Source of the DNA: Escherichia coli
GTDB lineage: Bacteria > Pseudomonadota > Gammaproteobacteria > Enterobacterales > Enterobacteriaceae
Length of the DNA: 64,000 nucleotides
Assembly (NCBI RefSeq): GCF_017348835.2
Contig: NZ_CP071375.1
Reading direction: 5' to 3' (one strand)
Shown here piece by piece: positions 19,386 to 19,757 of the stretch. Both the position numbers and the translations under genes were made by a program. Under the pieces are notes generated by a model, which saw nothing but the letters and a program-made list of their open reading frames with translations, searched no databases and was not told where the DNA came from. Each line of letters starts with the position of its first letter. The stretch's first letter is position 1.

Positions 19386-19757
19386 ATGAAACACGGAATC
19401 AAAGCACTGCTCATAACCCTGTCCCTGGCCTGTGCCGGAATGTCTCATAGCGCGCTGGCGGCGACTCCTGCGGCGAAACCGGCGACGGTAGAAACCAAAG
19501 CGGAAGCACCTGCAGCACAAAGCAAAGCGGCACTACCGGCAAAAGCCAGCGATGAAGAAGGCACCAGGGTCAGCATCAATAATGCCAGCGCGGAAGAGTT
19601 AGCCCGCGCGATGAATGGCGTTGGCCTGAAGAAAGCGCAGGCGATTGTCAGTTATCGGGAAGAGTACGGCCCGTTTAAAACAGTGGAGGATTTAAAACAG
19701 GTGCCGGGGATGGGCAATTCGCTGGTGGAACGTAATATGGCGGTAATAACCCTGTAA
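19386..19757 (+). CDS. ybaV: ComEA-like periplasmic helix-hairpin-helix DNA-binding protein YbaV, 123 aa
   Basis: ORF-track full length; signal peptide [25 protein letters not shown]; C-terminal HhH region ([25 protein letters not shown]). Confidence 0.9.

Follow-up and report, generated by a model that had tools for sequence, protein, structure and literature searches.

ybaV of Escherichia coli: a probable short ComEA-type DNA-binding protein with a candidate CRP-S site in its promoter region

Natural transformation has never been shown for Escherichia coli (PMC3330819). Proteins of the ComEA type, which are small, exported and bind DNA, serve bacteria in drawing DNA into the periplasm. The ybaV gene of E. 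coli has been counted among the homologues of competence genes and credited with a CRP-S promoter (PMC12844161, PMC6180151), and the enterobacterial comE1 promoter has also been analyzed (PMC1635313); the ComEA homology of YbaV and the membership of its gene in the Sxy/CRP-S regulon are already published and are not new. What form of ComEA does the gene specify, is it still maintained by selection, and where in the DNA upstream of it might its switch reside? In this report, we address these questions for the copy of ybaV found in a stretch of 64,000 nucleotides from one E. coli strain (contig NZ_CP071375.1 of assembly GCF_017348835.2); “the window” refers to this entire stretch, and positions are counted from its first letter. 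We conclude that ybaV very probably represents, in enterobacteria, the orthologue of the short Gram-negative ComEA (ComE1 of Haemophilus), that its product is probably exported and able to bind DNA, and that its expression is probably controlled by CRP-cAMP and Sxy.

The gene at 19386-19757 is the ordinary, previously described ybaV of E. coli (b0442 in K-12 MG1655). It is present in the list of open reading frames on the plus strand, with an ATG start, 123 codons and a TAA stop; it is 100% identical to RefSeq-annotated ybaV, and RefSeq gives this reading frame that name. Its product has 93% protein identity to that of K-12 b0442. A megablast search with positions 19100-20000 matched 5424 of 5426 complete E. 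coli genomes, in which the features at this place were always ppiD, ybaV and fadM, and 100% identical sequence was found in the pig isolates E. coli PE164 and F2_81. The order lon-hupB-ppiD-ybaV-fadM-queC-ybaE-cof is common to the window, PE164 and K-12 MG1655, and the window as a whole corresponds to approximately 444.5-508.6 kb of the K-12 chromosome at 98.6% identity. Upstream, ppiD (17364-19235) ends 150 bp before ybaV, leaving the spacer 19236-19385; downstream, fadM (19862-20260) begins after a spacer of 104 bp (19758-19861). A preliminary description of this DNA, made from its letters only, had named the gene ybaV and called it intact, with its own spacing on both sides. The annotation and the conserved gene order bear out the name, and the two spacers are as it had supposed. 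As a separate observation on this region, a segment of about 2.5 kb that runs from ybaV into the 3' part of ybaE, spanning fadM-queC, is a recombinational import from a non-coli Escherichia lineage.

The identity of the protein is carried chiefly by its C-terminal part. Residues 60-123 (19563..19754, plus strand) constitute an (HhH)2 DNA-binding domain, as judged from profile matches, model confidence and structural similarity. The Pfam family HHH_3 matches residues 60-117 (E=1.1e-18), and the family HHH matches as well (E=1.3e-7). The model TIGR00426, “competence protein ComEA helix-hairpin-helix repeat region”, is aligned in full with residues 55-123 at 128.2 bits, against a cut-off of 53.1. 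A sequence search of the Protein Data Bank with YbaV placed the ComEA structures 8DSS (Geobacillus) and 8DFK (Bacillus) on top, and the Thermus entry 2DUY was also found (E = 6.8e-4). In an AlphaFold model of YbaV that was built on 38 orthologues, the pLDDT is 90-94 over the C-terminal domain. The top Foldseek match of this model is 8DSS, with an rmsd of 0.9 Å over 65 columns and 46% identity, and the comparison with 2DUY gives a TM-score of 0.81 (normalized to the target). The C-terminal helix-hairpin-helix domain that had been read from the sequence is therefore real, and the search with ComEA and HhH models that had been proposed as a check gives strong matches.

The further claim, that YbaV has the architecture of ComEA, holds for the short Gram-negative form of that protein and fails for the long Gram-positive form. 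The full-length comEA model, TIGR01259, did not reach its cut-off with YbaV (65.3 versus 152.35 bits), and its positions 46-113 alone could be aligned. This model is missed because Gram-positive ComEA carries additional parts upstream of the domain: Gram-negative ComEA consists of a signal peptide and a stand-alone DNA-binding domain, whereas the Gram-positive protein also has an oligomerisation domain and is anchored in the membrane (PMC9747964).

The residues that contact DNA in a studied relative, as well as a structural arginine, appear to be retained. In the ComEA of Vibrio cholerae, G60 (in the hairpin of HhH1), K62/K63 and R71 are needed for DNA binding, uptake and transformation (PMC3879209). 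YbaV has G80-L81-K82-K83...R91, a G-x-K-K-x7-R arrangement whose spacing is identical to that of the V. cholerae residues; the equivalence is one of spacing and not of direct alignment. In the alignment of 38 enterobacterial YbaV orthologues, G80, K82 and R91 never vary, and at least 90% of the sequences have K83; the codons of Lys82-Lys83 lie at 19629-19634 on the plus strand.

Two regions precede this domain, and both had been proposed in the preliminary description. Residues 1-25 (19386..19460, plus strand) are predicted to be a Sec-type signal peptide, a call that was made with hand rules for the n-, h- and c-regions and not with a trained predictor. The n-region, MKHGIK, has a net charge of +2; the h-region, with a mean Kyte-Doolittle value of 2.12, is the top 13-residue window of the protein; and the c-region, SHSALA, has alanine at -3 and -1 (Ala-x-Ala). 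The predicted cut falls after Ala25, a residue that is invariant among the 38 orthologues. Residues 26-59 (19461..19562, plus strand) form a linker of low complexity that is rich in Ala, Pro, Lys, Glu and Thr, as delineated by composition, model confidence and variability. Twelve of its 34 residues (35%) are Ala, accompanied by 4 Pro, 4 Lys, 4 Glu and 3 Thr. The pLDDT is below 50 across residues 23-57, the linker being modelled as disordered, and both its length and its sequence differ between genera among the 38 orthologues. Thus, the charged n-region, hydrophobic core and Ala-x-Ala motif are in keeping with the first of the two proposals, and the composition and modelled disorder uphold the second.

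The HhH domain of YbaV is under strong purifying selection. Its dN/dS is 0.07 versus K-12 and 0.03-0.09 versus Salmonella and Klebsiella, with dS saturated between genera. The linker, with a dN/dS of 0.25 versus K-12, is evolving faster than the domain. Further, the gene is intact in 78 of 80 enterobacterial species representatives, with C-terminal frameshifts in the other two (L033 and L074).

We next turn to control. The preliminary description had suggested that a CRP-S (Sxy-dependent) site be sought in 19236-19385. Sites of this type resemble TGCGA-N6-TCGCA and have C6/G17. A strict core search, in which TGCGA-N6-TCGCA was allowed up to three mismatches, found no match inside this spacer (in the whole window it returned 266 matches versus 329 expected by chance), and a scan that allowed either CRP core type gave weak matches alone in the ppiD-ybaV spacer. 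The strict search is empty at ybaV because the left half-site has decayed in Escherichia to CTGAA, which agrees with TGCGA at one position only; taken alone, this search would wrongly suggest the absence of a CRP-S site. Phylogenetic footprinting and a regulon matrix instead point to a candidate beginning one base before the spacer, at 19235..19256 on the plus strand (ATCCTGAAGCCGCCTCGCAAAA). It overlaps the stop codon of ppiD and is centred 140.5 nt away from the ATG of ybaV. The right half, TCGCA (19249-19253), and the A-tract are perfect; the left half is degenerate.

For the footprint, 170 nt upstream of the start codon were aligned for 80 orthologous enterobacterial loci, one genome per species. 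The conserved blocks are TCGCA after the ppiD stop, TG.A, a hairpin, and a proximal block with TATCGT and the Shine-Dalgarno sequence; the last, AAGGAG at 19372-19377 on the plus strand as read from the sequence of the window, lies in ACAAGGAG, which is invariant in the alignment. At the aligned TCGCA column, no more than three core mismatches are seen in 67 of the 80 loci. Other genera come closer to the consensus, with one mismatch in Citrobacter (TTCGAGACGTCTCGCA) and two in Enterobacter (TACGTATCTGCTCGCA).

The matrix was derived from other members of the regulon. In the 300 nt upstream of each of nine K-12 Sxy-regulon or competence-homologue genes, the best core match was taken, and the candidate sites of K-12 ppdD (TTCTTCGTAACGCCTCGCAAAT, centre 136 nt from the ATG), sxy (TTTCGGAAAGAGCCTCGCAAAT, 136 nt), ycaI (AACTGGAAGCTGCCTCGCAGAG, 129 nt) and sbmC (GAGTGCGAGTCTGCTCGCATAA, 82 nt) were used for scoring, with ybaV excluded; these sites were chosen here as best core matches and not from a curated list. 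When all 127,958 22-mers of the window, counted over both strands, are ranked, that at 19235-19256 comes first with 19.8 bits. The next scores 15.3 bits and is devoid of TCGCA, which is absent from the high matches at 51036, 34120 and 1050. Further, in 76 of the 80 loci the best matrix match is found 137-140 nt before the ATG, and in 69 loci the score is above the 99.99th percentile of the background given by the window. The candidate sites of ppdD, sxy and ycaI resemble that of ybaV in having a GCC-TCGCA-AA right half, a weak left half and centres 129-140 nt upstream. The ybaV 22-mer has 11 consecutive nucleotides in common with the best ppdD candidate (CGCCTCGCAAA), and 13 of its 16 core bases are like those of the ycaI site. 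A ppdD promoter fragment is bound by CRP, and ppdD is induced 90-fold by Sxy (PMC1635313); we infer that the ppdD 22-mer used here is the published ppdD site. In that work, the bandshift experiments were confined to the ppdD and yrfD/hofM promoter fragments, and the quantitative PCR covered ppdD, yrfD and sbmC (PMC1635313). Thus, the search that had been suggested does yield a candidate, namely the best match in the window, conserved in its placement upstream of ybaV, whose sequence and conservation suggest that it functions as a CRP-S-type site.

A second CRP-S-like candidate, ACCTGCGTAAAGAGGCGAAAAT, is found at 19183..19204 on the plus strand, inside the 3' end of ppiD and 52 bp upstream of the site at 19235-19256. 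It has three core mismatches. Its orthologous position is the best matrix match in a few loci (e.g. L016), and its conservation is confounded by the coding function of ppiD. Cameron and Redfield predicted two CRP-S sites in enterobacterial comE1 promoters (PMC1635313), and the pair described here may be those two sites.

Downstream of the distal site, the spacer holds several elements that could belong to a promoter. The element GCTGTAAC with a candidate weak -10, TAACAA (19273-19278), occupies 19269..19278 on the plus strand, at a spacing shared with ppdD and ppdA: CTGYAAC lies exactly 16 nt past the right half-site in all three genes. The combination TCGCA-N16-CTGYAAC occurs once in the window, both strands considered. 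Across genera TG.A is conserved, and the A at the second position of TAACAA is invariant. TAACAA is thus a putative -10 element, from which transcription would start near 19285. Immediately following is a terminator-like hairpin of ppiD (19279..19304, plus strand), consisting of AAAAGGTCGC-TTTC-GCGGCCTTTT and then a T-rich tail. This hairpin (AAAGGCCGCTTTCGCGGCCTTTTCCA) has a fold energy of -17.6 kcal/mol (z = -3.65), and its stem, loop and tail are almost invariant in the 80-locus footprint; it is situated between the distal site and ybaV. An intrinsic-terminator scanner reported none in 19000-20000; it missed the hairpin because the T-run is interrupted, and folding reveals it clearly. A search of 18800-20100 against Rfam at a permissive threshold found no RNA family and therefore lends no support to a known 3'-UTR sRNA or leader.

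The placement of the distal site upstream of a strong hairpin leaves its transcript two options: to begin within the hairpin or to pass through it. CRP at 19235-19256 would be in a class II position relative to the weak -10, and a start near 19285 would fall inside the 5' arm (19279-19289), so that the transcript would not contain most of that arm. These considerations raise the possibility that ybaV has its Sxy/CRP-S promoter embedded in the terminator of ppiD, with its site between stop codon and hairpin and its start in the 5' arm; the 26-nt element would terminate ppiD and be bypassed by ybaV or serve it as a leader or attenuator. We offer this arrangement tentatively and consider it rather doubtful. 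If it were true, it might account for the unusual constancy of stem, loop and tail among the 80 enterobacterial species. Alternatively, the main promoter could lie downstream of the terminator, where the footprint delineates a proximal region (19306..19352, plus strand) made up of a conserved block (19306-19328), a -35-like TTGTTT (19325-19330) and a -10-like TAAGGT (19347-19352). Transcription would then start near 19359, with possible help from sigma-28, from transcripts running on out of ppiD or from a degenerate CRP site at 19306-19327, and the distal TCGCA would not be operative. Such a promoter avoids the problem of the terminator. Its block and the -10-like hexamer, which is TATCGT in most genera, are conserved in the 80 loci, and their positions relative to the ATG match those of the mapped V. 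cholerae comEA promoter, in which transcription starts at -24, the -10 is TATCAT and the CRP-S site spans -79 to -58 (PMC4299799). A SELEX peak of the sigma-28 holoenzyme also maps in the ppiD-ybaV spacer (PMC5493296). Against these points, the -10-like hexamer is weaker in Escherichia (TAAGGT), a scanner for sigma-70 consensus promoters reported none in 19000-20000, and the conservation of the block may be due in part to the T-tract of the terminator. The block was also considered as the main CRP-S site and was rejected, being a poor core match (4 of 10 mismatches to the canonical CRP core and 6 to that of CRP-S) whose score with the matrix of the E. coli regulon is less than 2 bits. We therefore judge it unlikely, though well within reason, that ybaV is driven mainly from this proximal region. 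The site at 19235-19256, possibly together with that at 19183-19204, is in our estimation the likeliest control element, and it would act on the weak -10 near 19273-19278.

YbaV and its promoter may be compared with the closest known systems. The ComEA of V. cholerae (VC1917), a periplasmic DNA receptor and ratchet, has a signal peptide, as is predicted for YbaV, and likewise a stand-alone double HhH domain (PMC3879209, PMC9747964), and its gene, like ybaV, belongs to a competence regulon dependent on CRP and TfoX/Sxy and has a CRP-S-type site upstream (PMC4299799). There are differences, however. YbaV has a linker of approximately 34 residues, rich in Ala, Pro and Lys, between signal peptide and domain; E. 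coli is without QstR and control by chitin; and the best CRP-S-like site of ybaV, which precedes a terminator-like hairpin, is separated from the ATG by about 140 nt, as opposed to about 68 nt in V. cholerae. ComE1 of H. influenzae and the enterobacterial comE1 genes of Cameron and Redfield (2006) fall in the same orthologous group as ybaV, and regulation through CRP-S was predicted for them (PMC1635313). The Pasteurellaceae promoters have one near-consensus TGCGA-N6-TCGCA, whereas the two halves of the E. coli ybaV site are unequal, the right one being perfect and the left one degenerate. The Gram-positive ComEA proteins (B. subtilis and G. stearothermophilus; 8DFK and 8DSS) have a DNA-binding domain homologous to that of YbaV, but their N-terminal membrane anchor and oligomerisation domain are lacking in Gram-negative ComEA (PMC9747964). 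Within E. coli, the ybaV site differs from those of ppdD, sxy and ycaI in its location, as it is the only one that lies between a stop codon and the terminator of the gene so ended.

Taken together with work in other bacteria, these features suggest how YbaV might operate. Its expression would normally be very low and would be switched on by CRP-cAMP and Sxy; the literature states that Sxy induces transcription of ybaV and that CRP-cAMP is needed for it (PMC12844161, citing Sinha et al. 2009; PMC3330819). The 123-residue precursor would be exported by the Sec pathway and cut after Ala25, and the mature protein of 98 residues would probably diffuse in the periplasm, as its architecture and the precedent of V. 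cholerae ComEA suggest. There, the double HhH domain would bind double-stranded DNA of any sequence, using the Gly80 hairpin and Lys82/Lys83 to hold the phosphate backbone. By analogy with Vibrio and Neisseria, YbaV may coat DNA that enters through the HofQ secretin/PpdD pilus machinery, prevent it from sliding back and thus act as an inward ratchet, and the DNA would then be passed to YcaI, the ComEC homologue. When sxy was supplied on a plasmid, all competence-gene homologues of E. coli were induced, and DNA uptake was measurable, albeit very low, while natural transformation did not result (PMC3330819).

The purpose of such uptake is a matter on which another view must be weighed. The same protein, with the same biochemistry, could supply DNA as food (a source of carbon, nitrogen and nucleotides) or promote fitness in stationary phase, rather than transformation; we regard this as a substantial possibility, although not as the probable one. 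According to the summary of Palchevskiy and Finkel's work in PMC3330819, growth of E. coli on DNA needs competence-gene homologues, and chromosomal transformation went undetected; ybaV is among such homologues in PMC6180151, and control by CRP-cAMP links expression to carbon starvation (PMC1635313). Uptake induced by Sxy nevertheless gave transformants once recombination functions were supplied (PMC3330819), and the two roles, which sequence cannot separate, are not mutually exclusive. It is very improbable that ybaV is what remains of an ancestral competence system in decay, now functionless and intact by chance in this strain. Such a view could draw on the undetectable transformation and scant Sxy-induced uptake noted above, on the two frameshifted representatives, and on a ybaV frameshift mutant that grows normally and in which artificial transformation is changed modestly, in a manner that depends on the method (PMC12844161). 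It is countered by the near-universal presence of the gene in complete E. coli genomes, its intactness in nearly all of the enterobacterial representatives, the low dN/dS of the HhH domain, and the conservation of the DNA-contact residues, the Shine-Dalgarno sequence and the upstream site. More improbable still is the view that YbaV is a lipoprotein or is anchored in the membrane, or that it belongs to generic HhH proteins, of the GspK or PsbU kind, unrelated to DNA uptake. A cysteine, Cys16, does lie within the hydrophobic segment, but the preceding S-L-A is no lipobox, and other genera have T, F, G or S in place of the cysteine, on which grounds a lipoprotein is rejected; the Ala-x-Ala cleavage motif after the h-region speaks against this view as well. 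The matches to T2SSK/GspK (20.9 versus 24.2 bits) and PsbU (22.8 versus 85) are weak and below threshold, whereas the cut-off of the ComEA HhH model is exceeded more than twofold. A short, exported ComEA thus remains our preferred reading of YbaV.

As a discovery, the present findings are of little weight, and they do not advance the puzzle of why E. coli has a complete and selected set of DNA-uptake genes without detectable transformation. What they add concerns this strain and the location of the putative switch. The ybaV gene of this E. coli is intact and under purifying selection; its allele came by recombination from a non-coli Escherichia lineage; and a candidate site of the CRP-S type, with a downstream element that is shared with other genes of the regulon, can now be placed at 19235-19256.

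The stretch from 19215 to 21785, which takes in ybaV (the ComEA homologue gene, 19386-19757, plus strand), fadM, queC and the 3' ~700 bp of ybaE, is a mosaic tract. It diverges from K-12 by 6-12% but shares 98-99.7% identity with Escherichia sp. E1V33, an unclassified member of the genus outside E. coli. Its flanks are K-12-like (about 99-99.6%) and only 87-93% identical to E1V33. The informative sites switch cleanly: those up to 19214 are K-12-like, those at 19263-21776 are E1V33-like, and the K-12-like pattern resumes at 21786. The breakpoints fall within 19215-19262 on the left and 21777-21785 on the right. 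When the 5426 complete E. coli genomes are compared, only two, those of the pig isolates PE164 and F2_81, match the ybaV region at an identity of at least 99%. Judging from these sequence comparisons, the tract was probably imported by inter-species homologous recombination.

The ybaV-fadM spacer (19758-19861) and the E1V33 allele share 97% identity. Compared with K-12, it carries an 11-bp insertion at about 19830-19845 that looks like a tandem duplication of a TTATAACA-type sequence (…CTTATAACAGTTCTTATAACAAC…). Upstream of fadM, a perfect palindrome with 9-bp arms, GAGGTCATA-CCAGT-TATGACCTC, occupies 19797-19819. Read on the minus strand, it is AACTGGTATGACCTC, a candidate FadR site that resembles the operator consensus. 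The fadM promoter is described as bound and repressed by FadR in PMC4259882, which cites Feng and Cronan 2009.

On the other side of ybaV, the terminator-like hairpin of ppiD (19279-19304) is essentially invariant across the 80 species representatives, drawn from many enterobacterial genera, its TTTC loop and T-rich tail included. Compensatory variation is almost absent among them, and this rigidity exceeds the expectation for a plain terminator. Between this hairpin and the ybaV Shine-Dalgarno sequence, the interval 19306-19352 holds a conserved proximal block and a -10-like hexamer, TAAGGT in Escherichia and TATCGT in most genera. Their positions mirror those of the mapped promoter of V. cholerae comEA. 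A sigma-28 genomic-SELEX peak has been reported within the ppiD-ybaV spacer.

The ybaV gene itself looks damaged in only two of the 80 representatives, Citrobacter koseri NCTC10786 (L033) and Enterobacter sp. EA-1 (L074). The C-termini of these orthologues are altered and truncated in a way that frameshifts within the second HhH motif could explain, and sequencing error may lie behind them.

Among K-12 competence promoters, we took the best core match in each as its CRP-S-like site (a Sxy-dependent CRP site). The candidates of ppdD (L085), sxy (L087), ycaI (L091) and, in the window, ybaV (19235-19256) are all asymmetric, with a strong right half (GCC-TCGCA-AA) and a weak left half. In ppdD, ppdA (L093) and ybaV alike, a CTGYAAC motif follows the half-site at a distance of 16 nt. 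The ppdD, sxy, ycaI and ybaV candidates all have their centres 129-140 nt before the start codon, a spacing that implies, for these predicted sites, leaders of about 90-100 nt across the regulon.
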